This document shows, piece after piece, positions 8,334 to 34,604 of a stretch of DNA of 64,000 nucleotides. Source of the stretch: Botryllus schlosseri. Taxonomy: Eukaryota. The position numbers and the translations under genes are program-made. The notes under the pieces are model-generated. The model searched no databases and had not been told where the DNA came from. It saw only the letters and a list, made by a program, of their open reading frames with translations. The DNA lies in the NCBI GenBank assembly GCA_051294905.1, contig CM119372.1, forward strand, positions 36,210,001-36,274,000. Direction: 5' to 3'. Each line of letters starts with the position of its first letter. Position 1 is the first letter of the stretch.

Positions 8334-9962
8334 CAGTGGTTCCCAAACGGTGGGGAATTCCCCACTGGTGGGGAATTCAATGGTTTTTGGTGGGGAATAG
8401 AGGCATTTGTTCAAAATTATATACAGGACCGTCTACATATTCACGGAGACACATGCGCAATTACCGTTACCAGTTAACTGCTCTGGAATGTATGTATCGA
8501 AAATTATATTGCGTGTTGTTCACAATCCCTCATTTTTAACTCTGGATGGCCAATGATGGCGTCACAAACGCATCCAGCAGCACGACTAGTTTGACGTGAA
8601 ATAATTCGCTTTCGCGAAATTTTGATCGTTACTGGTGTTGGTTCACAATACGTTATATGTTGCAGTCATAGGCGATTGTACTGGAGAGGTTGTGTGTCTT
8701 GTGTAGTCTGTGATGACAAAAGTGTTGGGTAGTAGGGAACAAGACCGTAACGGCCGCACCCCCCCCCCCTCCCCCAAGTGGGGAGCGAGCTCGAAGGAGC
8801 CCAAAATTATTTCGTGTATTACAATAAATTATAGTTTTTTTTTTATTTAAGCACTTTTTTCAAAATATTTTCGTGCTGGTTGCGCGATTATTACCTTTCC
8901 CCATGAAAATCCGTGGATTTTATAGAAATGGAGACTTGGGCACCGGCCATTACTGCGCCTTGAAGCACCAAGACCTATGAAGTTATAGGCCACGTAACAT
9001 ACGACTCCGAGAAGTGTGCCAGAACAATCAGCAGCGAGAATAGCTTGGCCGAGAACCGAGAAGGAATGCCCTTGTGGTGACTTCGATATATACAATATAC
9101 AACATACATATATGTCTCATTCTCGCCCAGCTCGACCGCGCAAGCGGTGTCTTACAAAAGGCCTAGAGGTGGGCCGTGCTATAAATCGGAAGTTACGGAA
9201 AATAATGAAGAATATCGGCCTGGTGTAAATGACCATAGTAGTCGAGAAACACCATGAATACCACAAAAACCAGAACCGAAAAAAATATATGTTCAATTGT
9301 CGTCCATAGGTGGCTAAATGGTTGGCGCCGAATGTTCATGTCCTGGCGTTCTGAACCCTACAGGACAAATTATTTGCCGGTAAAGCAATACCAATTTCAA
9401 ATCGTGTGTGCCTTTTAGTTATGGCGATATTCCATATCTTTTGAAATAGCAGATATAGGAGGTCACGAAATAGCATAATGTAACGAAGTCAATATACGGA
9501 CGGGTCTGCCCGAAGATGTTTAATAGGCTACTTATTTAGGGGTCTTACCTTTTCCAAAACACCTCACTCAGCTCTACCGGTAAATCGGATTACGTGGTGA
9601 GCAGAGGGGAGTTAAAAAAATTGAAAGCAAAATATATGCAAATCCCAATCATATTGACCGATTCAAACATGAATTACATAATTTTTTCGCGCTTCGCGCG
9701 TTTAGTCGAGATAAGGTGACGCTCGAAACAGTAAACCCAATGTAGCTGATAAGTAACGGGGGAAAGCGTACAGGCTCAGGGGGCTGAGGGGGTTCTGGGG
9801 GCGTGCCCCTCAGAAGTTGGGTTTATCACCCAGTGGCGGGGGGGGGCAAGACAACGTTTTTTTGGGGGGGGCTGACGAAGTGGTGTTACGGTCCTGATGG
9901 GGAATGAAGGCTCGGAATATATCTGAAGTGGGGAATGAAGACAAAAAGGTTGGGAACCACTG
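8334..9962. mobile_element. hAT MITE nested in family A; contains a partial SINE at about 9120-9285
   Basis: Ends CAGTGGTTCCCAA...TTGGGAACCACTG with exact TSD CTCTAAGC. Confidence 0.9.
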
Positions 9963-15425: not shown

Positions 15426-18400
15426 TTCCAGGTGTTTTTCGACTACAAAGGCCATTTACACCGGGTCGATTTTTATTTATTTTGATTCCGTACCTGCCAA
15501 CCATACAGCCCATTTCTAGACTTATTTTCAATAAACCACTTGTACAGATCAGAAGGCGAAGGGCAATTGAGACAAACTTCTAACACTTGAGTATAAAGTC
15601 TGAAGGCCAATGCTGAAACTACAACAATATAAATTCTAAAGTTACCTTTATTGTTCTTAGTCCATATTTTTACATATTTCCATACTTTGTCTAATTTTTG
15701 GTTCTCAAGACAGGTCGCAATGGTCATATGGACGATACGAACAGTCCAACTTGTTACCAGGCCGTGGTGAGGATTAGGCAAAATCGATGACCTATTTATA
15801 GTCACCAGCTGCTCAAATTCCGCGGTTAGGCTAATTAAAATTTAACCCTGGTTGTGGAGATCAAAACAATATCTCGGGATGGCTATACTACACAGTGCAA
15901 ATGCGCAGTCATACACCACAAAATTATAGATTCCGCGCTAAAAACAGGGTAAGAACCCCTGAACTACGTGAATTTCGTTAATCTCCCTTCAAAGTTTGAT
16001 ATCGATGAAAGAACAGTCGTAAAATGAAAACGCTGGTTGAATGGTAGACTTGGGAGGCTTCATCCTTTCGTTATTCTTATGCTACCCATCCCAATTAATG
16101 CAGCAATCGTTCAACGCCGTGGCGTATTGTTATTCTCTGAATCGATGGGCTGTCATGCAGTTCCACCTGCTCATAACAATAGGCAGTATAGTCAGTGTTG
16201 CTTCTGTAGTAGAAGTAGTGATTTCCAACACGTGTCCAAACTAAATTGTTTAAAGACACTTTATTTAAAACATGCTGAAAATTGTTTTAAAAAATTGACT
16301 TTTTGACAAAAACAAATTTTTTTCGAATGTAGTATAATTATGACATAATTGTGCAAATACTTTCGCAAAATACGTAGTATGAGCCTATGGACGATTTGCA
16401 CCCGATACAGTCGTCCTACGCGATATGGAATTGTCGGAACCCTCATAATCGTCGTGTGTGGCATAACGATGTAGCCCTGGTTAAAGATATTTTGGTCCGT
16501 TTAATACAGGGTTCGGAAGCCGTTTTCGTCAAGGGAGCTATTTTACCCTACGTGTTCGATAGTCAATCCACTGTGACGTCACAAGATTCGAGGCATCATG
16601 GCTAAAAATAAAAATAAAACATGTTTCAAACAGGGGTCTTGCTTTAAACATGATTGTTTTAAATTTATTTTTGTTTTGAATACAACCCTAGTCCGGCTAT
16701 AAATGAGGTGAATGAAGAAAATGAAAGCTCTCAAAAGTAATGAAGTAGTTGGGAAAAGTATGTTGGTGAAGAGTACATATACTTTCAGGCAGAATTGATA
16801 GGAGGTGAAAACTCTCGACAATGCGGGATAACATTTCGCAACCATCGCAAAAAGATTAATGACGGTACAAATGGGTACATTCGTCTATAAACATGTGTTT
16901 ACCAAAGGGAGGATATCGCCCTCGCCTGGAATATTTTGAAGGACAGGATGCTAAAGTAAGGAATGGGCCCATTGTGGGGTGAAAATTTTAGAACGTTCAG
17001 TCCATTTTATTGACAGAAAAGCGTTTTAATACTTGACACATTTAGCACGGGAAAAGTGAAAAGGAAGTTAGGGAACCAGTGCACAAGACTATTACAACCA
17101 GAGGTTACTATGATGCCAATTTCACGCGCTTGTTATGACGATCTAACTGATAACTGCAAACTTATCCCAAAACTAGTATTTACTTGACAAAATATTAAAT
17201 GCATAATTTTTGCCTAAATAACACAGTAAAATTAGCATAATAACATGGCCACTTGGATAGTTAGTGCAAGTATAGACAAAACGTACTTGAGTACTTCGAT
17301 AAAGTAAAGGTACTTCAATCCTGACTACCTCTGTAGTGTCGTCAGGTATTTGCCTGTTAGCGAGGTAACATGACGCGAAGTAGCCTATAACAACAGCCAA
17401 ACCATTGTTAGCCATGCGATATGACGTATAATTCTTTCAAATCACTCCTTCGTGGTAAGTACCCGCTCCAGTCGAGGTTACAGTCACGTATGGATGAACA
17501 AAATAAATCAGGGTCGCGTTCTTCCATCTACTCCAGTGGTTCTCAACCTTTTCACCTCGCGGACCGGTAGAATTCCCAAAAATATTTGGCGAACCGGTGG
17601 ACTTCCAAAAATTGAAATCAACCCGCAATGCAAAGTAAACAGACGTTTTTTGCAAGTATATGGTGCTAGAGAGTGTCATTTTGAGAGTTTCGATCATAAT
17701 TAATTATGTTCATGATGGCATCCATGTGATTTTACGGTTGTGAGTGTGCTGAGTCGAAGTAGAATTGCATTGCCCAGATAAACGTGTTACTGCCGAGAGT
17801 CGTTTACAGGCTTTCGCGTCGTAGACCGTGGATTTAACCGACCGCGGCAACTCGAATAATATTCATATCTTCGACAATATCGAGGGAAGAAGTGTTTCCG
17901 GAGTAAAACCAACACCTAGTCGTGCTACCTTGTTGAATGCCCATTTCCCACTACTACCAGACGTGGACAGTAGTATAATTAGTCGCTGGTGAGAGGTAAA
18001 ATACCGGAAACCAGAATGTTGTATTTCGGAAGTCAGAAACGCAGCATTTTGAGCTAGCTAGCAGTCGAAAATCGGCCTATGGAGCTTCGGAAAAGCGTCA
18101 TTGTGGCGCTTCATGGACGCGCATTGTGTATTTCATAGAACTAATGACTCTGTGTATGGTGTGCGGATTTTGAAAACAGGTGTTCGAGTGTGTATTGACC
18201 TATATTCCGCGCGACAAATGACTCTGGCATCCTGGGTCCGCTCAATCACTATAGTGGTTCTATCGTGAATTGCTTCCCATGAAACAGCCGCTACAGTATA
18301 CTGAATCTATCGTAATATGGTATCGGAGTATTACAGTAGTCTGTCAAACCCTTTCATGAATTCAGCAGCGACACGAAAATATTCATCAAACATTGTGTAT

Positions 18401-18951
18401 TGTGAAACAGTTATATTGCAAGATATCGTGATGCTGTATTACAGAATGGCATGCCGTGATTATCAGCTAATATTTCACAAAACCTGATCGTTTACACTAA
18501 TAAAGGCTAAAGTTGAAACAGCAGTCGCAAGGGTAAAAAAATTTCGCAAAATGATTTGAAATTCAACTCATTCAGTGATCTGTTTTTCCCGTGTCAAAAT
18601 TGAGTATCGGAAAATGCTATCGCCATTGCATCCGAAATATCAACATCTTACACAACCTAACTAGACCAATTACTGACAGATCGCCATGTGTTATATTTAG
18701 CTATGCCTTGTCCATCTAACTGAGCCGCTATATGTATGATAAAATAAAAGTTGCGCGAGCATATAGCGTGTGGGCGATTTTGCATGTCGCAGGGTTGAAT
18801 AATGCTTGAATTCTTTCGTACTATCTAACGTGCCCTATGTAAAACATTCTGGGTCTACAGATTTATCAAAAACACTTCCATCATCGCAAAACCGATTGAT
18901 AAAATGATTATTACATACAATCTAATCAGGTGGACTTACCTTATATGTAGA

Positions 18952-19430
18952 ATGCAGAACGGTAAAGTAATCGGAGATATCGACTACACTGTATTTTGTC
19001 TCGATGTTCGTGAGTAGTATTGATGCATTTTTTCATTTCTCTTCTCCAAAATAATTGTCATTACGAAATCTAGAACACTAAACAGCGTTGCTTGGGTAAT
19101 ATGATTTCGAGTTGGTATTAAATTCCTAACATTTTACTACAGGGTATATAGGCTCAGGCAGCAACAGTTCTGATTTAGCAGACGCTGGTGACAAGGGTCT
19201 CGCCCACTCAACACAACACACGTATTTAAAAGTATCGCATACTCACACCGAAAGCACTGACATTACCGTTTACCCCAAATAGTGTTCGCCGCGTTATTAT
19301 TTCCACGATATCACTCATTAAATATTACATTTATGTTTTTGTGTGACACTAGGTAGAATTGGATCACACCAAACTCGACGCAGCATTCCTTTGCGTCATG
19401 ATATGGATACTGTCCCGCCGCGCTTCATTG
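18952..19430 (+). other. Tentative upstream exons of the LRR gene (18952-19009, 19143-19231, 19353-19430), mirrored in the right arm
   Basis: GT-AG bounded and phase-compatible: MQNGKVIGDIDYTVFCLDV / RYIGSGSNSSDLADAGDKGLAHSTQHTYLK / VELDHTKLDAAFL. I could not join them cleanly to the exon at 20597. Confidence 0.4.
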
Positions 19431-20596
19431 GTGTGGATCTGTATCCTACAAGTTATATTGTTTTCCCTGAAAGCGGCGTTTACTCACTTGGTTGATAGCT
19501 GCGTGATTTGGCACACCACTGATTGGTTAATACTTAATTCCGTGCATCCTCTCTACGCCGCGTGCTAAATGTTTACAAGCACTTTAATCATCACGAAAGC
19601 AAATTGAAATATGTTTGCTACGTCGAGCTTATTCGGGTAGACTTGAGTTATAGGTAGAATACAGAACATCAAATAAATCCCAATATTGACTACTCCAAAA
19701 TCGGGTTAATGAGAATGGTATTGCTGTTCATAAGTTATTGCTAAAATCTTTCTATTTCTATCCACTTAAATATTTGTCATCAGAAAATTCGATCCACTAA
19801 AAGAACTTGATTTGGTAACATTAATTCGATTATTTTAGCAACTTGTCGTCAAATTGTAATCGAAATTCGACATCCTTAGCATGTATCGTTTGGTAAGCGT
19901 GCCATACTGGAAATATATCCATACATTCCTTCCAAAATACAGCATCGATTTCGATTTCAGAAGCATATACTTGCCCGAAACTATCCCAATCCAATTTTCT
20001 CCCTACAATGGCTTTCTATAACGCGATGAATGACCTATATTCTGGATAATCAGTTTATTGACATTTTTTTTTTCAATTTTTCGAACCACCTGTCTTACAA
20101 TGACACAAGTATAATAGCGATAACATGGTAATAATAGAATCGCGGCAGGGATCCCCTCCACAATGTAAATGGTTATTACTCATTACTATCTTCATATGAA
20201 ACACCTAATTACAAGATTCCAAAGGTACAGAAAAGTTTAGGTCGAAATAAATAATTGACTTCATTCTATATTCTACTGCTACAAAACCGAGATTGGTTGG
20301 TTACACACCGTAAACCTAACGCTATACATTGTAGTCGAGCAATCTCGAGCTTGAATATGTCAAGACCTCTGATTATTTCTATCTGGCGTATCGGAATATT
20401 CAAATAATCCAACAATGGAATTATTGCTTAAAAAAAATCACTGCTTCAGTTTATCTGGCACGTATCATTATTTTATCCGACTTATCGAAATATTGAAAAT
20501 AGTCCAACACAAAAATCACATTGGAATTTTATTGGAATGAATATTCATTTTATTTTCTGATCATTAATTAATGACGATATACCACATATACTAAAG

Positions 20597-23446
20597 GTGA
20601 TAAGAGGATGTACCATCAATCAATACTTATGGATCATGATGAAGTTGAAATTCCTTATGGGATCTATCATAAAACTACGACCGAATTGGATGTAAAGAAT
20701 ATTGTGAATGGTCTCATGGAGAACTCTCGCATGTACGAGTTAGAATTCCGCCAAAGCCATCTTAATGAGAACCTTGTAAAGATGATATTGGACCAAATTC
20801 GCGAATTTGCATTTGAGGTAAACACATTCACACATTCCGCTCACAGTCACTGAGCAAGTGAACATTATAATCCACGTTCAATTTAAGCATGATATCCGTA
20901 TAATATACAGAGGTGGCTTAAATAAAAAACTTTCATCATGACCGCATTGTTTCATATTGATATTGTTATTACGGGGGGAATTGAAGGTATCGTACCGAAC
21001 AACGCTTAATTGCGCACCAGTGTAGCCATTTATTGCAATAGTCGTACTAGAGACTAGTGAGAGCTGATGAGGGGGTTGATTATTCATCACCTCAATTACT
21101 GCTTTACGGAGGAAAGTTTTGCATTTGTAAAGGTCCGAATAAAAAAACTCAGCGTCACAGCCCACGAGGGCATTGACAACCTCTTACCAGCCATCTGCGA
21201 GTTGATGAACGAGTGTGGTTCGACAGAACTCAATCTGGGGGAGAGTAGCGGATCTAGCGATTTTCTGCTCGTTTTGAGTCAACTTATCAGGCAACATCAG
21301 GTATTGGCGATGGAAAAATCCGGAGACTAAACTAGTATAAATCCTTTCCAAATGAGATCTTCCCATATAGGTGAAATTGGAAAAACTCGATCTCAGCTAC
21401 GGCGAAAACATCGACTTTACGCAACTCGAGACTATTATTTGAAGCGATCTAACCTGTTTGTCACTTGTGAACTCGCACTTGCAGTCAAAGGATTTTGTCG
21501 CCATGCAGGTCAAAAACAGTAAGGTATGGGTCTTGGGCGATTGTTGTTGAGTAGTGGTCAAGAGTCACATTCTTTATTGGTGGTTGCACAGAGTTCATTT
21601 GAGACGAATCATAGAAATTCTATTTTATCTCAGAACATTTCACCAATCTATTATGACGTGACTGGCTAATCAACATTTCTCTGTTATAAGTTTGTAGTGT
21701 TTATCTTCATCTCTGATTAATTGTGGTCGTAAATTGTCAGTTTCTCATATTCGTTTAGCTACAATATCTTGACATCAGTTATAATCATTTGGATGAAGAG
21801 TGTATGAATGCACTGCCCCCCTTATTTTCTAAAGACAAAGCGGTTACTCTTGTGATGAAAGGATGCGACCTTACACCCGATGAAATCGATGCTTTTGAAT
21901 GTTTTGGTGAAATCGAGGTAGCCACTCGTTTCCACAATTTTGCGTGTCTTTTTCAGAATAATTTGCTGTATTTTGTAGGTTGAAAAACTCGATCTAAGTT
22001 ACAATACGGATTTGGAACCGGTAGGATTGCAAGAAATCGGACGCTTCGTGAAAAGGCATAACACGAAGGAAGTTCGACTTTCAGCTTGCGAATTGGATGA
22101 ACAGTCATTAGTGTCGTTGAATAATGGTCTCGGAAATCATAAGGTGATCCATTTTAGCTATAGATCTGTCTTGTTTTCTTACAAGTGAAATAATAAAGCA
22201 TAATGTAATACTAATGTGGGTTCCAATCATATAGTCAGGCATGGCATTTCATTTTGCGAGCGAATTTATCATCAATAAGGCATTCCTGATCACGTCTGGC
22301 GATAAAAAAGTGTCATTGCTTCTAAGCGGAAGGTTTTCTATAGCTTATTCATATTAATGGTAGTTTCGATAGTTTCTTCAATATCCTATCGACGCTCATT
22401 ATTATTTTTTCTGTATTACACTAGTTTTGCGATGAGGCGCCGAAATTGATCAAATTACTCTGTCGCCGATAAATATTGTTATTACAGCAACTGTGTGGTT
22501 TGTAGCGCCGTAAAATATCTGAACATCACACTATGTTATAGCTGCATTCGCTGGATTTGAGTAGAAATCCTGAAATTTCATCCAGCTACAAAACAGTAAC
22601 TGAAATCCTGCACAAAACCCGCGTTGAAGAATTCAATCTGAGTAATTGCAAGATGCTTTCCATACAAATCAGGAATCTTAGCGAAGAGATGGGGGAGCTA
22701 TGCCCTACAGTGAGTTCTTTCTGCTCTCTCATGCATCTCAATAAAGCAATGTAGTTTAGATTTCGTTACTGAAATTGATCTAAACCGCCTAATATTCAAT
22801 TATTCAATGAACAGCTAAAGGTATTCGACCTCAGTGACAGCGATAGAACAAGAATCGACGAGGAATATGTGACTATCATTCAGAGCTTCGTGAAATATCA
22901 TCCTGAATGTCGCCAACTCAAACTGATCTTACCGCGCTTGAATGGCGTAGACAGGGAAACTTTAAGGAAGCAATTGTATTCGTCCGGTAAGACGACATTT
23001 CCGCATAAATATGCATCTATACATTGAAATTTGGTGCCCTTATTCCTTCACTTTATATTACTTATCGTGTTCGCTACGGCTTGATAAAATTTCATGTCTC
23101 TGTGTTAATTAAAGCATGAATTAAAGCACCACAATCACAACCTAATTGAAACCACGAGTCTGCAACCAATATTCTGATTTTGTTGAACAGTTATAGTTAA
23201 TAAATATTTTTATTGGTATCATTATGATAACAATATCTTCGAGACCTGTGTATGGCATACCCAGGAACCCGTATTATAAAATTGTACCGATTTGACAGAA
23301 TGCATAGAGTTGAGATGTTTCGATTCTAATTACATGTGGTATTATATGGGTTTCGTAAAACGAGACATACAACGCGATTTCCTAAAAGGTTCATCTCTTT
23401 TTGCGTTGCTTTAGACCGGACGCGTATAATATACACATTTGGATAA
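20597..23446 (+). pseudogene. Spliced ribonuclease-inhibitor/NLR-type LRR gene, left-arm copy with premature stop
   Basis: Exons 20597-20817, 21133-21300, 21371-21523, 21759-21917, 21979-22143, 22542-22709, 22815-22986 and 23415-23446, all GT-AG. Motifs LEKLDLSY, LQYLDISYNHL, VEKLDLSYN, LHSLDLSRN and LKVFDLSD. In-frame TGA at 21440-21442. Confidence 0.85.
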
Positions 23447-24684
23447 CGATTTTCTTTCATCACATGAGCAATATGTTCAGTGTTCACCCACGCGATAAAG
23501 CAAATCAGTAGTCCTCATAAGACTTGCAAATGTTTATCACACTCATAATAGTATACTAACGGCAACTATAGTCGGCGATATACTGCAGGTTTCGATGTGA
23601 TCGGCTGACCAATAATAAATCGCACATAGCACTCACATCAGTGCAATAATTGGCTTCAGGTGTTTGGTAGGTATTTCATTACGACGGAAGCATGTGAACC
23701 GAAGTTTTGGTCGTGATTGATAGTGACCGAGCGGTAAAATATGGTTGTGTTTAATCTGTGTGTGTGTGTGTGTACGACTGTGAAGCTACAATCTACGATA
23801 TCATCCCCGTACTTCACTTGTTAAGATCCGTGCTTAGCATTTTCGAGACGCATTACGACTGAATTTGCAATCTCGCTAGTTTTACGAACCGGTATATGCT
23901 TGTGTTGCGACAATGATCAGTGGATGATCATGATCAAGCTTCGAAAATGGATGAACACGTGTTTTCGAGCTTATTAACAACTCATGAGTGTGCACTTGTC
24001 AGTTAGTTTGCTCACACGTAAATAATAGAGATTTTCGCTGCGCAGGGAAGATGTTGTTTAAATCTTTATAAACCAATTCACATTGCATACAATCCTTGCC
24101 GCTTCGAACTCGGAAAGTCAATTTGGTAAACTCAATCACCAGATCCCGATAATCACCTGAAGCGATAAACCAAAACCAACAAATAATGTATAGCTTCAAC
24201 TAGGCCCACATGTCGATACACTGTCAATACGAAAAGTTACAATGTGTATGATGCTACAAATTCCGTGTGTTCCATTCTGGTTCAGCTCATTCATACAAAG
24301 TATTTGAAGAAATTGTTGCTTGTGCAGTTATGGTGTGAAAACTGGATGTATATAAAGCTTGATAGATGCTATCTCGTTCTGGAAGTATATTGATTCTATC
24401 ATCATGTATGCTTGAGGTCACCGACATTAATACGAAAGAATTGTTACTGTACAAATGTTTTACAGTCGATAGTTTACTGTCTGTAATAATTACACAACAA
24501 GGTTGCAGCTCAAACGATTACCGCATTGCCATGAGAGTTAATTATGATTCCACCGATGTTGTGCACCATAATATATTGAAAATTAATTTTCACGAGCTCC
24601 AAACTTGCATCGCGAGATCAATAAAATCGATTTTGTAAATTCAATCTGATGAATAGATGGCGGAAGACTTGTAGATCTAGAACG

Positions 24685-25263
24685 CAATCAGTCATATTTG
24701 TCCATCATGATACATAGTTATTCGAGCAAATTTAACAGTGATGCTATCGATACAGTGAACAGCACAAGGGGTGATATATTCACAGTCAAATATGGGAACC
24801 ATGAATAATAATGCACCCTGATTTTCGTTGAATATTCACAACACCGACAAATTGATAAATCTCTCTGTCGTAGACATCGACGATACAATTCTCATCCCAA
24901 TGCACAGTTCGAATGGTAGGCTCATCGGGCGTGAAATCCAAATCAAATAACACATAGGTGTGCTTTCTTGACTTCAAGATCCGTACAGAGGCATCGCGCC
25001 TGTGTTTTAGAACTACAGTGTGAGGCCAGAGAAAACGGTGTACGGAATAACGTATCGTCATGATCTCCCGTTGATATGATTAACTGAAACTTACGTCGCT
25101 CGATAGATATGCTGTGGTGACCTGTTTCGAAATGTAGCGGGGTGAACTAGACCAAAACTTTTGATGACACGTTTTATAATTATGCATTGTGTGAAAATAC
25201 GAGACGGCGCTCTCTAGCGGGGTGGTTAACACGATTTCAGTCTTCATCCTACAGAAACACTAT
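24685..25263. other. Unique 579-bp spacer (loop) of the palindrome, containing a 91-aa minus-strand ORF at 24786-25061
   Basis: Symmetry ends after ...TCTAGAACG at 24684 and resumes with CGTTCTAGA at 25264. Confidence 0.85.
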
Positions 25264-26501
25264 CGTTCTAGATCTACAAGTCTTCCGCCATCTATTCATC
25301 AGATTGAATTTACAAAATCGATTTTATTGATCTCGCGATGCAAGTTTGGAGCTCGTGAAAATTAATTTTCAATATATTATGGTGCACAACATCGGTGGAA
25401 TCATAATTAACTCTCATGGCAATGCGGTAATCGTTTGAGCTGCAACCTTGTTGTGTAATTATTACAGACAGTAAACTATCGACTGTAAAACATTTGTACA
25501 GTAACAATTCTTTCGTATTAATGTCGGTGACCTCAAGCATACATGATGATAGAATCAATATACTTCCAGAACGAGATAGCATCTATCAAGCTTTATATAC
25601 ATCCAGTTTTCACACCATAACTGCACAAGCAACAATTTCTTCAAATACTTTGTATGAATGAGCTGAACCAGAATGGAACACACGGAATTTGTAGCATCAT
25701 ACACATTGTAACTTTTCGTATTGACAGTGTATCGACATGTGGGCCTAGTTGAAGCTATACATTATTTGTTGGTTTTGGTTTATCGCTTCAGGTGATTATC
25801 GGGATCTGGTGATTGAGTTTACCAAATTGACTTTCCGAGTTCGAAGCGGCAAGGATTGTATGCAATGTGAATTGGTTTATAAAGATTTAAACAACATCTT
25901 CCCTGCGCAGCGAAAATCTCTATTATTTACGTGTGAGCAAACTAACTGACAAGTGCACACTCATGAGTTGTTAATAAGCTCGAAAACACGTGTTCATCCA
26001 TTTTCGAAGCTTGATCATGATCATCCACTGATCATTGTCGCAACACAAGCATATACCGGTTCGTAAAACTAGCGAGATTGCAAATTCAGTCGTAATGCGT
26101 CTCGAAAATGCTAAGCACGGATCTTAACAAGTGAAGCACGGGGATGATATCGTAGATTGTAGCTTCACAGTCGTACACACACACACACACAGATTAAACA
26201 CAACCATATTTTACCGCTCGGTCACTATCAATCACGACCAAAACTTCGGTTCACATGCTTCCGTCGTAATGAAATACCTACCAAACACCTGAAGCCAATT
26301 ATTGCACTGATGTGAGTGCTATGTGCGATTTATTATTGGTCAGCCGATCACATCGAAACCTGCAGTATATCGCCGACTATAGTTGCCGTTAGTATACTAT
26401 TATGAGTGTGATAAACATTTGCAAGTCTTATGAGGACTACTGATTTGCTTTATCGCGTGGGTGAACACTGAACATATTGCTCATGTGATGAAAGAAAATC
26501 G

Positions 26502-29351
26502 TTATCCAAATGTGTATATTATACGCGTCCGGTCTAAAGCAACGCAAAAAGAGATGAACCTTTTAGGAAATCGCGTTGTATGTCTCGTTTTACGAAACCC
26601 ATATAATACCACATGTAATTAGAATCGAAACATCTCAACTCTATGCATTCTGTCAAATCGGTACAATTTTATAATACGGGTTCCTGGGTATGCCATACAC
26701 AGGTCTCGAAGATATTGTTATCATAATGATACCAATAAAAATATTTATTAACTATAACTGTTCAACAAAATCAGAATATTGGTTGCAGACTCGTGGTTTC
26801 AATTAGGTTGTGATTGTGGTGCTTTAATTCATGCTTTAATTAACACAGAGACATGAAATTTTATCAAGCCGTAGCGAACACGATAAGTAATATAAAGTGA
26901 AGGAATAAGGGCACCAAATTTCAATGTATAGATGCATATTTATGCGGAAATGTCGTCTTACCGGACGAATACAATTGCTTCCTTAAAGTTTCCCTGTCTA
27001 CGCCATTCAAGCGCGGTAAGATCAGTTTGAGTTGGCGACATTCAGGATGATATTTCACGAAGCTCTGAATGATAGTCACATATTCCTCGTCGATTCTTGT
27101 TCTATCGCTGTCACTGAGGTCGAATACCTTTAGCTGTTCATTGAATAATTGAATATTAGGCGGTTTAGATCAATTTCAGTAACGAAATCTAAACTACATT
27201 GCTTTATTGAGATGCATGAGAGAGCAGAAAGAACTCACTGTAGGGCATAGCTCCCCCATCTCTTCGCTAAGATTCCTGATTTGTATGGAAAGCATCTTGC
27301 AATTACTCAGATTGAATTCTTCAACGCGGGTTTTGTGCAGGATTTCAGTTACTGTTTTGTAGCTGGATGAAATTTCAGGATTTCTACTCAAATCCAGCGA
27401 ATGCAGCTATAACATAGTGTGATGTTCAGATATTTTACGGCGCTACAAACCACACAGTTGCTGTAATAACAATATTTATCGGCGACAGAGTAATTTGATC
27501 AATTTCGGCGCCTCATCGCAAAACTAGTGTAATACAGAAAAAATAATAATGAGCGTCGATAGGATATTGAAGAAACTATCGAAACTACCATTAATATGAA
27601 TAAGCTATAGAAAACCTTCCGCTTAGAAGCAATGACACTTTTTTATCGCCAGACGTGATCAGGAATGCCTTATTGATGATAAATTCGCTCGCAAAATGAA
27701 ATGCCATGCCTGACTATATGATTGGAACCCACATTAGTATTACATTATGCTTTATTATTTCACTTGTAAGAAAACAAGACAGATCTATAGCTAAAATGGA
27801 TCACCTTATGATTTCCGAGACCATTATTCAACGACACTAATGACTGTTCATCCAATTCGCAAGCTGAAAGTCGAACTTCCTTCGTGTTATGCCTTTTCAC
27901 GAAGCGTCCGATTTCTTGCAATCCTACCGGTTCCAAATCCGTATTGTAACTTAGATCGAGTTTTTCAACCTACAAAATACAGCAAATTATTCTGAAAAAG
28001 ACACGCAAAATTGTGGAAACGAGTGGCTACCTCGATTTCACCAAAACATTCAAAAGCATCGATTTCATCGGGTGTAAGGTCGCATCCTTTCATCACAAGA
28101 GTAACCGCTTTGTCTTTAGAAAATAAGGGGGGCAGTGCATTCATACACTCTTCATCCAAATGATTATAACTGATGTCAAGATATTGTAGCTAAACGAATA
28201 TGAGAAACTGACAATTTACGACCACAATTAATCAGAGATGAAGATGAACACTACAAACTTATAACAGAGAAATGTTGATTAGCCAGTCACGTCATAATAG
28301 ATTGGTGAAATGTTCTGAGATAAAATAGAATTTCTGTGATTCGTCTCAAATGAACTCTGTGCAACCACCAATAAAGAATGTGACTCTTGACCACTACTCA
28401 ACAACAATCGCCCAAGACCCATACCTTACTGTTTTTGACCTGCATGGCGACAAAATCCTTTGACTGCAAGTGCGAGTTCACAAGTGACAAACAGGTTAGA
28501 TCGCTTGAAATAATAGTCTCGAGTTGCGTAAAGTCGATGTTTTCGCCGTAGCTGAGATCGAGTTTTTCCAATTTCACCTATATGGGAAGATCTCATTTGG
28601 AAAGGATTTATACTAGTTTAGTCTCCGGATTTTTCCATCGCCAATACCTGATGTTGCCTGATAAGTTGACTCAAAACGAGCAGAAAATCGCTAGATCCGC
28701 TACACTCCCCCAGATTGAGTTCTGTCGAACCACACTCGTTCATCAACTCGCAGATGGCTGGTAAGAGGTTGTCAATGCCCTCGTGGGCTGTGACGCTGAG
28801 TTTTTTTATTCGGACCTTTACAAATGCAAAACTTTCCTCCGTAAAGCAGTAATTGAGGTGATGAATAATCAACCCCCTCATCAGCTCTCACTAGTCTCTA
28901 GTACGACTATTGCAATAAATGGCTACACTGGTGCGCAATTAAGCGTTGTTCGGTACGATACCTTCAATTCCCCCCGTAATAACAATATCAATATGAAACA
29001 ATGCGGTCATGATGAAAGTTTTTTATTTAAGCCACCTCTGTATATTATACGGATATCATGCTTAAATTGAACGTGGATTATAATGTTCACTTGCTCAGTG
29101 ACTGTGAGCGGAATGTGTGAATGTGTTTACCTCAAATGCAAAATCGCGAATTTGGTCCAATATCATCTTTACAAGGTTCTCATTAAGATGGCTTTGGCGG
29201 AATTCTAACTCGTACATGCGAGAGTTCTCCATGAGACCATTCACAATATTCTTTACATCCAATTCGGTCGTAGTTTTATGATAGATCCCATAAGGAATTT
29301 CAACTTCATCATGATCCATAAGTATTGATTGATGGTACATCCTCTTATCAC
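26502..29351 (-). CDS. Spliced ribonuclease-inhibitor/NLR-type LRR gene, right-arm copy (about 408 aa from the ATG at 29340; true 5' end uncertain)
   Basis: Mirror of the left-arm exons, with TCA (Ser) at 28506-28508 in place of TGA. The LRR exons are 153-172 nt and mostly phase 0. Confidence 0.8.
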
Positions 29352-32162
29352 CTTTAGTATATGTGGTATATCGTCATTAATTAATGATCAGAAAATAAAA
29401 TGAATATTCATTCCAATAAAATTCCAATGTGATTTTTGTGTTGGACTATTTTCAATATTTCGATAAGTCGGATAAAATAATGATACGTGCCAGATAAACT
29501 GAAGCAGTGATTTTTTTTAAGCAATAATTCCATTGTTGGATTATTTGAATATTCCGATACGCCAGATAGAAATAATCAGAGGTCTTGACATATTCAAGCT
29601 CGAGATTGCTCGACTACAATGTATAGCGTTAGGTTTACGGTGTGTAACCAACCAATCTCGGTTTTGTAGCAGTAGAATATAGAATGAAGTCAATTATTTA
29701 TTTCGACCTAAACTTTTCTGTACCTTTGGAATCTTGTAATTAGGTGTTTCATATGAAGATAGTAATGAGTAATAACCATTTACATTGTGGAGGGGATCCC
29801 TGCCGCGATTCTATTATTACCATGTTATCGCTATTATACTTGTGTCATTGTAAGACAGGTGGTTCGAAAAATTGAAAAAAAAAATGTCAATAAACTGATT
29901 ATCCAGAATATAGGTCATTCATCGCGTTATAGAAAGCCATTGTAGGTAGAAAATTGGATTGGGATCGTTTCGGGCAAGTATATGCTTCTGAAATCGAAAT
30001 CGATGCTGTATTTTGGAAGGAATGTATGGATATATTTCCAGTATGGCACGCTTACCAAACGATACATGCTAAGGATGTCGAATTTCGATTACAATTTGAC
30101 GACAAGTTGCTAAAATAATCGAATTAATGTTACCAAATCAAGTTCTTTTAGTGGATCGAATTTTCTGATGACAAATATTTAAGTGGATAGAAATAGAAAG
30201 ATTTTAGCAATAACTTATGAACAGCAATACCATTCTCATTAACCCGATTTTGGAGTAGTCAATATTGGGATTTATTTGATGTTCTGTATTCTACCTATAA
30301 CTCAAGTCTACCCGAATAAGCTCGACGTAGCAAACATATTTCAATTTGCTTTCGTGATGATTAAAGTGCTTGTAAACATTTAGCACGCGGCGTAGAGAGG
30401 ATGCACGGAATTAAGTATTAACCAATCAGTGGTGTGCCAAATCACGCAGCTATCAACCAAGTGAGTAAACGCCGCTTTCAGGGAAAACAATATAACTTGT
30501 AGGATACAGATCCACACCAATGAAGCGCGGCGGGACAGTATCCATATCATGACGCAAAGGAATGCTGCGTCGAGTTTGGTGTGATCCAATTCTACCTAGT
30601 GTCACACAAAAACATAAATGTAATATTTAATGAGTGATATCGTGGAAATAATAACGCGGCGAACACTATTTGGGGTAAACGTTAATGTCAGTGCTTTCGG
30701 TGTGAGTATGCGATACTTTTAAATACGTGTGTTGTGTTGAGTGGGCGAGACCCTTGTCACCAGCGTCTGCTAAATCAGAACTGTTGCTGCCTGAGCCTAT
30801 ATACCCTGTAGTAAAATGTTAGGAATTTAATACCAACTCGAAATCATATTACCCAAGCAACGCTGTTTAGTGTTCTAGATTTCGTAATGACAATTATTTT
30901 GGAGAAGAGAAATGAAAAAATGCATCAATACTACTCACGAACATCGAGACAAAATACAGTGTAGTCGATATCTCCGATTACCGTTCTGCATTCTACATAT
31001 AAGGTAAGTCCACCTGATTAGATTGTATGTAATAATCATTTTATCAATCGGTTTTGCGATGATGGAAGTGTTTTTGATAAATCTGTAGACCCAGAATGTT
31101 TTACATAGGGCACGTTAGATAGTACGAAAGAATTCAAGCATTATTCAACCCTGCGACATGCAAAATCGCCCACACGCTATATGCTCGCGCAACTTTTATT
31201 TTATCATACATATAGCGGCTCAGTTAGATGGACAAGGCATAGCTAAATATAACACATGGCGATCTGTCAGTAATTGGTCTAGTTAGGTTGTGTAAGATGT
31301 TGATATTTCGGATGCAATGGCGATAGCATTTTCCGATACTCAATTTTGACACGGGAAAAACAGATCACTGAATGAGTTGAATTTCAAATCATTTTGCGAA
31401 ATTTTTTTACCCTTGCGACTGCTGTTTCAACTTTAGCCTTTATTAGTGTAAACGATCAGGTTTTGTGAAATATTAGCTGATAATCACGGCATGCCATTCT
31501 GTAATACAGCATCACGATATCTTGCAATATAACTGTTTCACAATACACAATGTTTGATGAATATTTTCGTGTCGCTGCTGAATTCATGAAAGGGTTTGAC
31601 AGACTACTGTAATACTCCGATACCATATTACGATAGATTCAGTATACTGTAGCGGCTGTTTCATGGGAAGCAATTCACGATAGAACCACTATAGTGATTG
31701 AGCGGACCCAGGATGCCAGAGTCAGTTGTCGCGCGGAATATAGGTCAATACACACTCGAACACCTGTTTTCAAAATCCGCACACCATACACAGAGTCATT
31801 AGTTCTATGAAATACACAATGCGCGTCCATGAAGCGCCACAATGACGCTTCTCCGAAGCTCCATAGGCCGATTTTCGACTGCTAGCTAGCTCAAAATGCT
31901 GCGTTTCTGACTTCCGAAATACAACATTCTGGTTTCCGGTATTTTACCTCTCACCAGCGACTAATTATACTACTGTGGACTGTTGTAGCTACTACGGCTA
32001 TAATGCGCCGCACCAAAACACCTGGCAACAGCTATACTTGGCCCTCCACAAAATCAGAACAGAAAAGGCGTAGGCTACCCCAACGTTGGTCTTGGGCCTC
32101 TCACAGAGAGAGGGATATCTTTACCGTTACTTGTGATCACATCCATTCTACTCAGTGCAAGC

Positions 32163-32893
32163 CAGTGGTTCTCAAATTGGGGGCGTGCCCCCGTGAAAGC
32201 TTGAGAAAGGGTGCGCGAAGCCGCCTGAAAGAAAAATATGTTACTCAAACTGAGAACAACCTTTCAACAAAGGAAATATTTTTAATTACATAACAATTCA
32301 AATTTCATGATTGCGTCGTACAGTTTCTACACGGATGTCAAATTTCGTCTGATACCGGACCTTTCACTGATTAGAAGATGTATCACTCCAAGAAGCGCAT
32401 TTTATTATGGCAATCAGTGGAATTATTCTCTTGCCAAACATGGCGAACATTGCGCAGGGAAAAAATGTTTGCCAGTGTAAAAGTGCCAAGTTTAAATGGC
32501 GTACGGCCCGGGCCATTGGTTTTCAATTTAGCTTACGCCCAGGTAGACCTACGTTTGAGTTAAGCTCAAGTGGGATAATAAAATGGATCAGGCACCAAAA
32601 TCGCTAAATGCTGCGTGCTATCACTGCAAATGATTATTTTTGATACGATGTTGAAGTGAAAATTTTTCGCGCTGGGCTTGATTTAACTCCAGCAAATGAA
32701 TATTGCTCCCTATATAATCCGAAATTCTTATTTGACAAGTCTCTCATCAGTTCTAACCTTCCATGACATCAAACTATGCATTATCATTGCAAACATTTGG
32801 TCGTTTTTTTCAATATTTTGCTATGACGATAAGGAGGGGCGCAACATTTTTCACGATAATAACGGGGCGTGTCAAAAGGTTTTGGAACCTCTG
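32163..32893. mobile_element. Degenerate hAT MITE
   Basis: Ends CAGTGGTTCTCAAA...TTTGGAACCTCTG with TSD GTGCAAGC/TTGTAAGC (6/8). Confidence 0.7.
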
Positions 32894-34604
32894 TTGTAAG
32901 CAAAGAGTTCGTGAATAGCTTAATCACGCGAGGCGCGGGAATTTCCTCTAATTCATGACCAAATTGGTCAATGATAATGGTAATTGCGGATATATTGCTA
33001 AAAAATCATCCCATCAGAATTGTTATATTTCCGATAGAGCTGAGTGAGGTGTCGTCTTGGAAAATTCAGGACACGTAATCAACAATTAAATATATTAGGG
33101 CGGGCCTGTTGGAATAATTACTTCGTCACATGTCATAAATTCGTGTCCTATACTGTCTGTTATATAGTGAATAGATATTGAAATCGCCCAAGTGTACTAA
33201 ACTAAAAGCGCACACGATTCCAAACTGGTATTTCTTTACTGGAAAATAGCATGCCTCGGTGGGATGGCATTTGTTTTGTCGGGTATGGATTGTCAGGACA
33301 GCGAAATTCGACACCAGCCATTTAGGTGCCTATGGACAACTTGACATAATATATCGAAGTTTTTGGTGAACGAAGGTCAATCCTTTTCGGCCAAAATTTT
33401 GTCGCCGCCAAATTGTTGGCACATTGTTCGGAGTCCCATGTTAGCCTAAGCTTCATCATGTGTTGGTGCGTCGTGGTGCTGCAATGGTTGATGCCGAAAT
33501 GTCTACTCCTATATAACCCATGCGTATTTCTTAGGGGAATGGCTCCCTCAAGGCATTTAGTGGCACTAAATCGGGCAAAGCGTCGACAAAATTGAAATGT
33601 TGGATGAAGTTTCAACCAGATTACTCTATACTTCATGTTCATTTCACGAAATAACTTTGGGCCCCCTTCAAGCTCGACCCTCTTCAATTGGAGGGTTTGG
33701 GTGCGGTGGTTACAGTTCAGCACAAAATGAATGAATCGAAAACGAATTATCGTGCAAGCTGCGCGATTAAGCGAGTCAGCTCAGACTTTTCAATAGCATG
33801 TCGTCAAATGACACGGCTTGAACTTCAAGTCAAATCGAACATGTTTCCAGGCCTAATGTTACCTCACGAAGTTCTGAATCAGTTTAAAATTTGATTTCAT
33901 ATTTATTTTTATCAATGGACAAGTCTTTAACATATTGCATCTTGAAATTGAGGTATAAAATTGTAATATACCTGGCGGACCGGCAGGAAAGTCGTCGCGG
34001 ACCGGCGGTTGAGAACCACTGATCTACACAGCTAATTAGATACTCAACAAATTTCCACTTGATTTTTAAAACGAGAACGTTAGTTTGGGTTCTATATGTA
34101 TCTGTAATGCTGACTCCTAAACTAGATTTTTTTCTAGCTTATTTTCAATATTTTTTGAGAAAAGCTTTCCTATAGTAGAAAGAGGCTTGTTACCGTGGGC
34201 ATTTCAGATTTGTTTAGGGGGGTTCAATAATTTAGAGCAGTGGTGGGCAATTATTTTCCTCTGCGGGCCAAATGAGAAGTAGAAAATGCGTGGGCCGGCC
34301 GAGTGGGAAATTTAAGCTGTATTCTCCATCGTATTTTAATTATATTTCTAAATTACATTGTTAGTAAATGCTGCTCAGTGAATATGTTGATATTAGGTAA
34401 TGAGAAAGTGACGGTTAGCCTAATTGAAAAATATTTATTTGCCGTCATGATTGGAGACAACGTTGAACATGATGCATTTTGACTCCCTTTAAACCCCTGT
34501 CCACGTTCTTCTATTAAGACTCCAAAACAGTGTTTTTTTTTAGGCACACCTTCCTTCCTTTATGATAATGAAACATTTCGCGCTCCCCATGATCAGATCA
34601 TGAT

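Follow-up and report, generated by a model that had tools for sequence, protein, structure and literature searches.

In a 64-kb window of the Botryllus schlosseri genome (the whole stretch of 64,000 nucleotides analysed here, to which all coordinates refer), a 14-kb element is folded almost entirely into one inverted repeat. We consider it probable that this element is a non-autonomous Polinton derivative that originated by copy-back synthesis, is moved in trans and carries a pair of LRR genes and a gene for a 91-aa protein as its payload. Judged by its sequence, the element is a non-autonomous member of the Polinton/Maverick group, as its ends are homologous to those of Polintons, it starts with AG beside a 6-bp target duplication (TSD) and it lacks the enzyme genes. 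Nor is the palindrome peculiar to this locus: a whole population of elements in this genome is built in this way.

The left arm of the palindrome covers 6,716 bp (17969-24684, forward strand) and the right arm 6,711 bp (25264-31974, reverse strand), and they enclose a non-repeated spacer of 579 nt (24685-25263), the loop of the hairpin. Inverted repeats of 6.7 kb each thus make up 96% of the element. An inverted-repeat search recovered the arms as two paired blocks, 18967-24684 with 25264-30981 (5,718 nt) and 17967-18965 with 30978-31976 (999 nt), while global alignment found 11 substitutions (0.16% divergence) and one 5-bp indel at 18962-18966 between them. The element begins with AGTAGTATAATT... 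and ends with ...AATTATACTACT, giving AGTAGT...ACTACT termini, and it is flanked directly by GTGGAC on both sides (17963-17968 and 31975-31980). Arms, spacer, termini and flanking hexamers had all been given in a preliminary description of this DNA, and repeat search and alignment reproduced them exactly. The arms consist of complex sequence: TRF reported 0 tandem arrays in them, and within arm and spacer not a single direct or inverted repeat of at least 30 nt was detected. Rfam and tRNA scans of 17000-33000 gave no matches, and neither did a Pfam search with the six longest ORFs of the window outside the element.

The element has been inserted into an older high-copy repeat with a 6-bp target duplication, and the insertion is fairly recent. 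The left flank (17560-17962) and the right flank (31981-32160) belong to the same dispersed repeat, for which the left part gave 1,903 first-look candidates in the genome, at 82-85% identity. In all 11 paralogous copies compared, the sequence corresponding to right-flank positions 14-184 (counted from 31975) directly follows the homologue of the left flank. These paralogous empty sites run uninterrupted in 11 of 11 cases and contain a single hexamer (GTAGGC-like) where the window has two, as expected in the preliminary description for a site without the element. Logan contigs of three DNA-type runs consist of short pieces, and none of those listed bridges the arm/spacer junctions; nor is the left junction bridged convincingly, where one 271-nt X5 piece enters the element by 28 nt with 13 mismatches.

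The link to Polintons comes from elements elsewhere in the genome. One of them, designated C3, is 15.4 kb long, with TIRs of 433 bp and the TSD CTCGAC. Its 1,057-aa ORF has DNA_pol_B_2 (0.97) as nearest Atlas clusters, a neighbouring ORF matches a phage DNA-polymerase family, and the element also encodes a Pox_A32-type ATPase and an rve integrase with a chromodomain (rve+chromo). Each of the two ends of the C3 and C4 Polintons matches positions 17969-18287 of the window at 79-80% identity (79% over 320 nt), and the 42 nt that adjoin the left TIR of C3 on its inner side match 18370-18411 at 93%. The terminal region homologous to autonomous Polinton TIRs, which starts with (AGT)x2, accordingly spans 17969-18411 on the forward strand, with its counterpart within the right arm at 31532-31974. 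A full-length Polinton sharing these ends had been anticipated in the preliminary description, and C3, with its pPolB, ATPase and integrase genes, is such an element. A sister of the window element on C12 carries far more of the same sequence: both of its arms contain about 1.03 kb at 94-97% identity to the C3/C4 Polintons, and both extend roughly 820 nt past the 433-bp TIR from the same single Polinton side. Both ends being derived from one Polinton end is therefore clear in the C12 sister, and the window arms retain only 42 nt of unique Polinton sequence beyond the TIR.

The enzymes themselves were not found in the window. Across the 64 kb, tblastn gave no match with the pPolB ORFs of C3, with its rve integrase or, for ATPase, protease and capsid modules, with any of the 14 C3 ORFs tested, so that the earlier claim that Polinton genes are missing held against the C3 proteins. 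No Pfam polymerase was detected among the 33 ORFs of arm and spacer; Integrase_p58_C gave a sub-threshold match there, scoring 14.6 bits (E 0.037) where 27 is required, and the arms showed nothing else resembling a transposase ORF. Elsewhere in the genome, pPolB was represented by 44 listed matches of 349 candidates, in three lineages, 37 of the 44 without a stop. The element would be copied and integrated in trans by proteins of autonomous Polintons, an inference that draws on end homology of only 79-80% to the sequenced helper; the many pPolB copies and the repeated insertion of palindromic families are circumstantial evidence for it.

Perfect 6-bp TSDs abut AGTAGT-type ends in six of seven element pairs; the C4 pair has no TSD. 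Other copies starting at AGTAGT with different duplications, a prediction of the preliminary description, were indeed recovered: five further elements with AGTAGT or AGTAAT ends have the perfect TSDs CTCGAC, CGCGTC, TTCGTA, GGTGCG and AACCGG. A second terminal family (n = 10 pairs) has a perfect TSD in six pairs, a 5/6 match in one and a 4/6 match in one, and the other two become perfect if one end is given an extra AGT unit. How many AGT units stand at the ends differs between elements, which would fit a regeneration of the ends by slippage along a short terminal repeat. The palindromic families show multiple insertions with distinct TSDs. The alternative reading offered earlier, CAG...CTG ends with the 4-bp TSD TGGA, is excluded, because the C3 and C1 elements have C...C bordering AGTAGT...ACTACT and the inverted repeat cannot extend outward there.

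Other elements with AGTAGT ends and 6-bp TSDs are also multi-kb palindromes. Arm identity outside the window was measured in three palindromic elements only (C12 inner, C12 outer and C1); near-perfect palindromes of 14-18 kb occur at three loci, and paired matches suggest dozens more. The C12 sister element is 98% identical to the window element. The C12 outer element has 4.25-kb TIRs around a unique centre, and the C1 relative is palindromic over 17.8 kb with an asymmetric centre of only 34 nt. A conventional short-TIR non-autonomous Polinton (5.3 kb, 389-bp TIRs, TSD CGCGTC) is present in the same genome.

Each arm contains what looks by sequence like a spliced LRR gene of the RI type, and this gene is moderately constrained. 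The left copy of this module lies at 20442-23091 on the forward strand, and the second at about 26857-29506 on the reverse strand within the right arm. Exon-like ORFs of the left module are found at 20575-20853, 21061-21330, 21759-21983, 21979-22188, 22542-22754 and 22779-23027, the last of which terminates in a stop, and three exon-like ORFs begin directly after a pyrimidine tract and AG. The LRR repeat pattern is visible in the translations; scored singly, the exons match LRR_1, LRR_6 and LRR_4 (E 0.003-0.09) without reaching the gathering score in any case. Compared with a 90% paralog, the exon-like blocks show 92-98% identity without indels and the intervening stretches 80-89% with indels, and pN/pS for the module is 0.46 over 226 codons. 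Translations of the seven exon-like ORFs compared are equal in both arms save for two residues. Among 'longer' proteins, no homologue of the exon at 21061-21327 was found, and RNA over 16500-25300 (about 6% of one run) yielded four reads, none of them in the LRR bins. The 2.65-kb module recurs in numerous other palindromes of this kind, with 1,401 first-look candidates in the genome, and about 30 scored copies have sharp boundaries in common. The view of a host-like LRR gene as cargo stands in so far as a spliced LRR gene is present in each arm; a one-off capture from the host does not fit a module that recurs in many elements.

The preliminary description names an LRR gene as cargo and missed a further gene. 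The spacer also holds an intact ORF of 91 codons plus stop (24786-25061, reverse strand), which is the one gene that the element has in a single copy, so the element is more than gene-poor junk. Three database homologues are each exactly 91 aa long with 65-74% identity, and in the genome 147 of 150 scored matches, drawn from 1,203 candidates, are stop-free, giving at least 147 intact copies. The median dN/dS is 0.21, and conservation spans deeply diverged element lineages (dS up to about 2). Purifying selection has conserved the gene in hundreds of related elements, and a role in the propagation of the elements themselves is therefore probable. No Pfam family matched the protein, and the Atlas gave no usable match with its C1 homologue. 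A profile search of 1.84 billion representatives returned its own cluster and two weak repeat-type matches, one of them a WD40 protein at E 1.4e-4, which offer no more than a lead, and an IMG/VR scan gave one weak match of 39 residues. AlphaFold models had a pLDDT of 58.7 (six sequences) and 41.0 (26 sequences), values too low for a comparison of folds.

The anatomy of these elements suggests that copy-back synthesis is the most likely origin of the palindrome. A Polinton fragment that retained a single end would be replicated from that end by protein priming, until the growing strand folded back on itself near the break. Copying of the arm back to the terminus would then leave both ends of the molecule identical and able to support replication, and proteins of a helper Polinton, supplied in trans, would copy and integrate it. 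Arm identity is maintained while sister elements diverge by 2-10%. When the four arms of the two elements (window and C12) are aligned over 3,620 columns, 62 fixed differences at which both arms agree distinguish the elements, and differences confined to a single arm number only 7 in the window element and 12 in the C12 element. Such identity might be kept by correction of the self-paired hairpin or panhandle at each round of replication or, alternatively, by arm-to-arm gene conversion after insertion.

A palindrome born in the chromosome, with its arms kept alike by gene conversion only and the element spreading as a long-TIR transposon, would have a similar appearance. Similar products would come from an inverted duplication in the chromosome that later transposed, or from two inverted copies that recombined; arms that co-vary within elements while the elements differ are what gene conversion yields, and the C12 outer element suggests a gradation of TIR lengths. 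However, the two arms of the C12 sister share a single Polinton side, including sequence past the TIR, and the centre can shrink to 34 nt; a tiny centre is the geometry typical of fold-back synthesis. The spacing between paired LRR modules is 1,384-1,387 bp at no fewer than six loci, which implies that the palindrome was inherited by transposition and not formed anew at each locus. A chromosomal birth is accordingly judged unlikely.

The palindrome might be an artefact of assembly, from a fold-back chimeric long read or a mis-join, at a locus that in reality holds a shorter element or no element at all; assembly is difficult where arms share 99.8% identity over 6.7 kb, and the Logan contigs are too short to span the palindrome. 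Against this, the two ends have different flanks that are contiguous at all 11 paralogous empty sites and bear a clean 6-bp duplication, the arms differ from each other at the substitutions and the indel described above, the elements at C12 and C1 are built alike but have different TSDs, and C1 carries in one arm only a 1,191-bp insertion with its own 8-bp duplication, which together make an artefact scarcely credible and speak against a chance match as well. It is also quite improbable that the elements form a separate cut-and-paste family, with an unrecognised enzyme of its own, whose ends acquired Polinton TIR sequence. Such sequence can travel in other contexts, as a search with the terminal 332 bp found that 23 of 30 fetched loci were not termini and had the match 351 bp inside an unrelated composite repeat, and the elements do carry a conserved 91-aa gene. 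Yet the exact AGTAGT start lies beside a 6-bp TSD in the window and five other elements, as it does in the pPolB-encoding C3, the 91-aa protein, which appears to be all-beta, is an unlikely transposase, and the arms offer no other candidate ORF.

Compared to autonomous Polintons/Mavericks, the window element has the same AG termini (here as reiterated AGT), the same 6-bp TSD and a terminal stretch of about 440 bp homologous to their TIRs, but it has no pPolB, integrase, ATPase, protease or capsid genes, and its inverted repeats are far longer: Polinton TIRs are given as 100-1,500 bp in elements of 13-25 kb (10.1101/2023.08.22.554363). Non-autonomous Polintons also combine Polinton ends and a TSD with absent enzymes; the window element differs from them in being a whole-length hairpin with duplicated intron-bearing cargo and a conserved small gene. 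Such non-autonomous elements appear in repeat libraries and were reportedly mentioned by Kapitonov and Jurka in 2006, and a literature search of titles and abstracts found no palindromic Polinton derivatives. In nematode Mavericks, according to Widen et al., intron-containing cargo adjoins the left TIR (10.1101/2022.07.12.499685). Both are Polinton-type vehicles with spliced, host-like genes near one end; the nematode elements, however, are complete, keep the full set of viral genes and have their cargo in one region of 2-5 kb, whereas the window element has none of these genes and bears cargo in both arms.

In replicons that are linear DNA or start by protein priming, among them adenovirus, linear plasmids and poxviruses, copy-back or snap-back defective genomes arise and inverted terminal repeats can expand. 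Copy-back defective genomes resemble the window element as interpreted here: both ends are the same and come from one end of the genome, the central loop is small, a helper is required, and each end is corrected against the other. They are extrachromosomal by-products of infection, whereas the window element is integrated in the germline, transposes, is multi-copy and has its own conserved genes. Foldback (FB-type) transposons likewise have very long inverted repeats with little in between. Their arms are built of tandem subrepeats, in contrast to the window arms, which have neither tandem nor internal repeats and whose ends are homologous to Polinton TIRs.

The replication mode of Polintons/Mavericks has been inferred mostly in silico. 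The shape of the hairpin family, with one genome end present twice around a tiny loop, is a classic by-product of end-primed replication, and the family would offer indirect, testable evidence for an extrachromosomal, protein-primed Polinton stage. These elements also indicate that Polinton ends are able to carry large, intron-bearing cargo in duplicate, make the 91-aa protein a candidate new player in Polinton biology and, as near-perfect palindromes of 14-18 kb, bear on assembly quality and genome stability. More tentatively, the hairpin elements may go beyond dead remnants of Polintons and be distinct, long-lived satellite replicons of them, born by copy-back, with the hairpin remade at each replication so that the arms do not diverge, a borrowed helper polymerase and integrase and a conserved toolkit of their own. 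That toolkit could comprise the 91-aa protein together with LRR and Bcl-2-family genes, resembling the host-manipulating genes of large DNA viruses. If this possibility were true, the satellite replicons would be fossil evidence that the Polintons of this animal lineage replicate in the form of free linear genomes.

The palindrome claimed for this locus in the preliminary description was borne out exactly. A repeat search of the window located inverted arms at 18967-24684/25264-30981 and 17967-18965/30978-31976, the two arms being separated by 579 nt, and a global alignment of 17969-24684 against the reverse complement of 25264-31974 gave arm lengths of 6,716 and 6,711 bp, with 11 substitutions and one 5-bp indel (18962-18966) between them. 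The termini of the element are AGTAGT...ACTACT, and GTGGAC is found at 17963-17968 and again at 31975-31980. Searches of the arm sequence found no tandem or internal repeats in the arms, and the base composition of the element is unremarkable (about 38% GC, compared to about 40% in the surroundings).

The insertion-site repeat spans 17560-17968 and 31975-32160 of the window, and its left part belongs to a dispersed repeat with at least 1,903 first-look candidates at 82-85% identity. In 11 of 11 paralogous loci fetched, the left-flank homologue joins the right-flank homologue directly, and a single GTAGGC-like hexamer occupies the position that in the window is taken up by the element and its two flanking copies of GTGGAC. 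This empty-site check, called for in the preliminary description and made on paralogs rather than alleles, showed that the element is a true insertion with a 6-bp target-site duplication (TSD).

Searches of the whole genome covered 495 Mb in 219 contigs, and the counts derived from them are lower bounds. The terminal 332 bp of the element gave 40 scored matches among at least 156 candidates. The 30 loci fetched with this sequence comprised the element's own two ends, three true termini with unrelated flanks, two partial matches and 23 internal ones; most matches are not termini, and the informative ones are paired ends. Such pairs bound a 15.4-kb element on contig C3 (C3:33209538-33224980, TSD CTCGAC), a 5.3-kb element on contig C1 (C1:15389527-15394880, TSD CGCGTC) and a 19.6-kb element on contig C4, in which the two ends differ and there is no TSD. 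The C3 element has terminal inverted repeats (TIRs) of 433 bp that are 99.5% identical. Its 1,057-aa ORF has eukaryotic DNA_pol_B_2 families as nearest Atlas clusters (0.97), an adjacent ORF matches a phage DNA-polymerase family, and the element also encodes a Pox_A32-type ATPase and an integrase with rve and chromodomain. A 447-aa ORF gave a weak Capsid_N hint alone (E 0.12), and no protease was recognised among the C3 element genes.

Window positions 17969-18287 are 79-80% identical to both TIRs of the C3 and C4 Polintons, and 18370-18411 is 93% identical to the 42 nt immediately inside the C3 left TIR; only these two stretches are common to the window element and these Polintons. The proposal of Polinton-type ends was thus upheld by a match to the TIRs of an element encoding pPolB, ATPase and integrase. 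The accompanying claim that Polinton genes are absent also stood, as tblastn found no match to the C3 element ORFs anywhere in the 64-kb window. An autonomous Polinton was rejected because the defining genes were tested for and are missing from the window. Another reading of the junctions, with CAG...CTG ends and a 4-bp TSD, was ruled out because the bases beside the ends of the C3 and 5.3-kb C1 elements are C and C.

Polintons are described as 13-25 kb long with TIRs of 100-1,500 bp and TSDs of 5-8 bp (10.1101/2023.08.22.554363), and complete nematode Mavericks have an intron-bearing cargo region of 2-5 kb adjoining the left TIR (Widen et al. preprint). The window element is best classed as a non-autonomous Polinton in a hairpin form, and a literature search covering non-autonomous or derived Polintons/Mavericks, palindromic non-autonomous Polintons, and Polintons together with Bcl-2 listed no paper on hairpin Polinton derivatives.

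Potential helpers are plentiful, since pPolB copies are numerous and mostly without a stop. Among at least 349 genome-wide candidates, 44 matches were listed, 37 of them without a stop, and those listed represent at least three lineages, which are 92-100%, 67-68% and 61-62% identical to the C3 copy. Many other copies have pPolB open frames of 1,295-1,306 aa, longer than that of the C3 element. The Polinton population of this genome is, judging from these matches, large and seemingly young.

At 23 of the 30 loci fetched, the sequence resembling a Polinton terminus (82% identical) is internal rather than terminal: it is set 351 bp in from the edge of a composite repeat (L004-L029), whose copies are 97-99% alike (e.g., positions 1150-1852 of L009, G000:C3:19256394-19259733). 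This repeat ends at CAATGTTCCCTC beside variable flanks in 21 of the 23 loci, and its outer 351 bp alone have at least 5,344 first-look candidates.

The arms carry a 2.65-kb LRR module (20442-23091), a high-copy sequence with at least 1,401 first-look candidates and with sharp boundaries common to about 30 scored copies at 88-92% identity. Its plus strand contains several successive ORFs that show an RI-type LRR pattern; single exons of these gave Pfam matches to LRR_1, LRR_6 and LRR_4, all sub-threshold, and three ORFs are immediately preceded by a pyrimidine tract and AG. Aligned with a 90% paralog, the exon-like blocks are free of indels and show 92-98% identity, whereas the intervening stretches contain indels and show 80-89%. 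Over 226 codons of the LRR ORFs, pS was 0.106, equal to the inter-ORF value (0.110), and pN was 0.048, a ratio of 0.46; the frames are open in both arms, between which two residues differ. The ORF pattern, splice-like AG, indel distribution, pN/pS and open frames therefore make a predicted spliced LRR gene under moderate constraint well supported; the preliminary description had likewise proposed a spliced LRR gene.

The spacer contains an intact 91-codon ORF on the minus strand (24789-25061), which that description had not included. Two other element families carry homologues in their arms (54-70% amino-acid identity), and three database homologues are each exactly 91 aa. The genome gave 150 scored matches among at least 1,203 candidates, 147 of the 150 being without a stop, and at least 26 inverted pairs of matches 4.7-14.5 kb apart could be read from the match table. 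A set of 21 copies was compared, comprising those of the window and of C12 (one) plus 19 chosen to cover the span of identities among the top-scoring matches, a sample biased to intact copies; median pS was 0.52 and median pN 0.16, with a median dN/dS of 0.21 (204 of 210 pairs). The ORF profile weakly matches repeated stretches of a WD40 protein (E 1.4e-4, five stretches) and also of a 300-aa protein without an above-threshold Pfam family (E 9.6e-6); these matches may be chance or may be a trace of an origin from a beta-propeller blade.

Arm-to-arm identity was determined for four elements. One of them, on contig C12, is 16.7 kb long and has ends of the window type, TSD TTCGTA and arms 99.9% identical; 5 kb of it matches the window element at 98%. 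It sits within a 28.7-kb element (G000:C12:17217658-17246324; L039+L037+L038+L040) that has other AGTAGT ends, TSD GGTGCG and 4.25-kb TIRs at 99.7%. Compared with the window element, the inner element has a rearranged centre, in which a portion of the window spacer occurs in the opposite orientation. A 17.8-kb element on contig C1, of a third terminal type and with TSD AACCGG, forms a palindrome over its whole length (99.5-99.95%), with an asymmetric centre of just 34 nt. A Bcl-2-family ORF (Pfam Bcl-2 E 1.6e-21; BALF1 E 1.7e-5) is found in this C1 element (L041:3337-3879, plus strand, and a mirror copy) and in the C12 outer element (8447-8954 of the C12 concatenate); an inserted element interrupts the second C1 copy, and the window element has no such ORF.

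In each arm of the C12 inner element, a stretch of about 1.03 kb matches the C3 and C4 Polintons at 94-97% identity, on the same single side for both arms; it comprises the Polinton TIR and a further 820 nt or so. A small loop flanked by duplicates of a single genome end is the geometry expected from copy-back, and the palindrome most likely arose when a one-ended template was copied by fold-back synthesis in the course of end-primed replication, a step that we infer. Integration would have been carried out by a Polinton integrase, as the 6-bp TSD and shared ends suggest. In a four-arm comparison of the window and C12 inner elements, the two arms of each element match at 62 columns that distinguish one element from the other, versus only 7 columns peculiar to a single arm of the window element and 12 to a single C12 arm. 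Because of this disparity, the arms of an element may have been corrected against each other, either by replication of a self-paired intermediate or by gene conversion once inserted; alternatively, the same columns may reflect elements that were each formed anew from templates already diverged. As to arm-to-arm correction, a 1,191-bp insert that is confined to one arm of the 17.8-kb C1 element (positions 22321-23511 of the concatenate L043+L041+L042+L044) shows that arms are not always re-homogenised. This insert has its own 8-bp duplication (TTCTATAT) and CAGGGGTGGGCAAAC-type inverted ends, and we take it to resemble a hAT-type MITE.

A search with the terminal type of the C1 palindrome yielded 41 matches out of at least 69 candidates; these include no fewer than 13 plus/minus pairs separated by 15-29 kb. 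Ten of these pairs (L057-L076) were examined for TSDs: six have perfect 6-bp duplications, two more do if an extra AGT is allowed at one end, and the remaining two agree at 5/6 and 4/6 positions. In these ten elements, copies differ in how many AGT units they have at their termini, as do the two ends of a single element (AGTAGT versus AGTAGTAGT), a variation that would fit regeneration of the ends by slipping back along a short reiterated terminal motif. A comparison of the two match tables placed at least 11 inverted LRR-module pairs between such end pairs. Since a central spacing of 1,384-1,387 bp recurs in several inverted LRR-module pairs, the match tables indicate that the palindrome is passed on by transposition. 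The palindromic build is a trait of the family.
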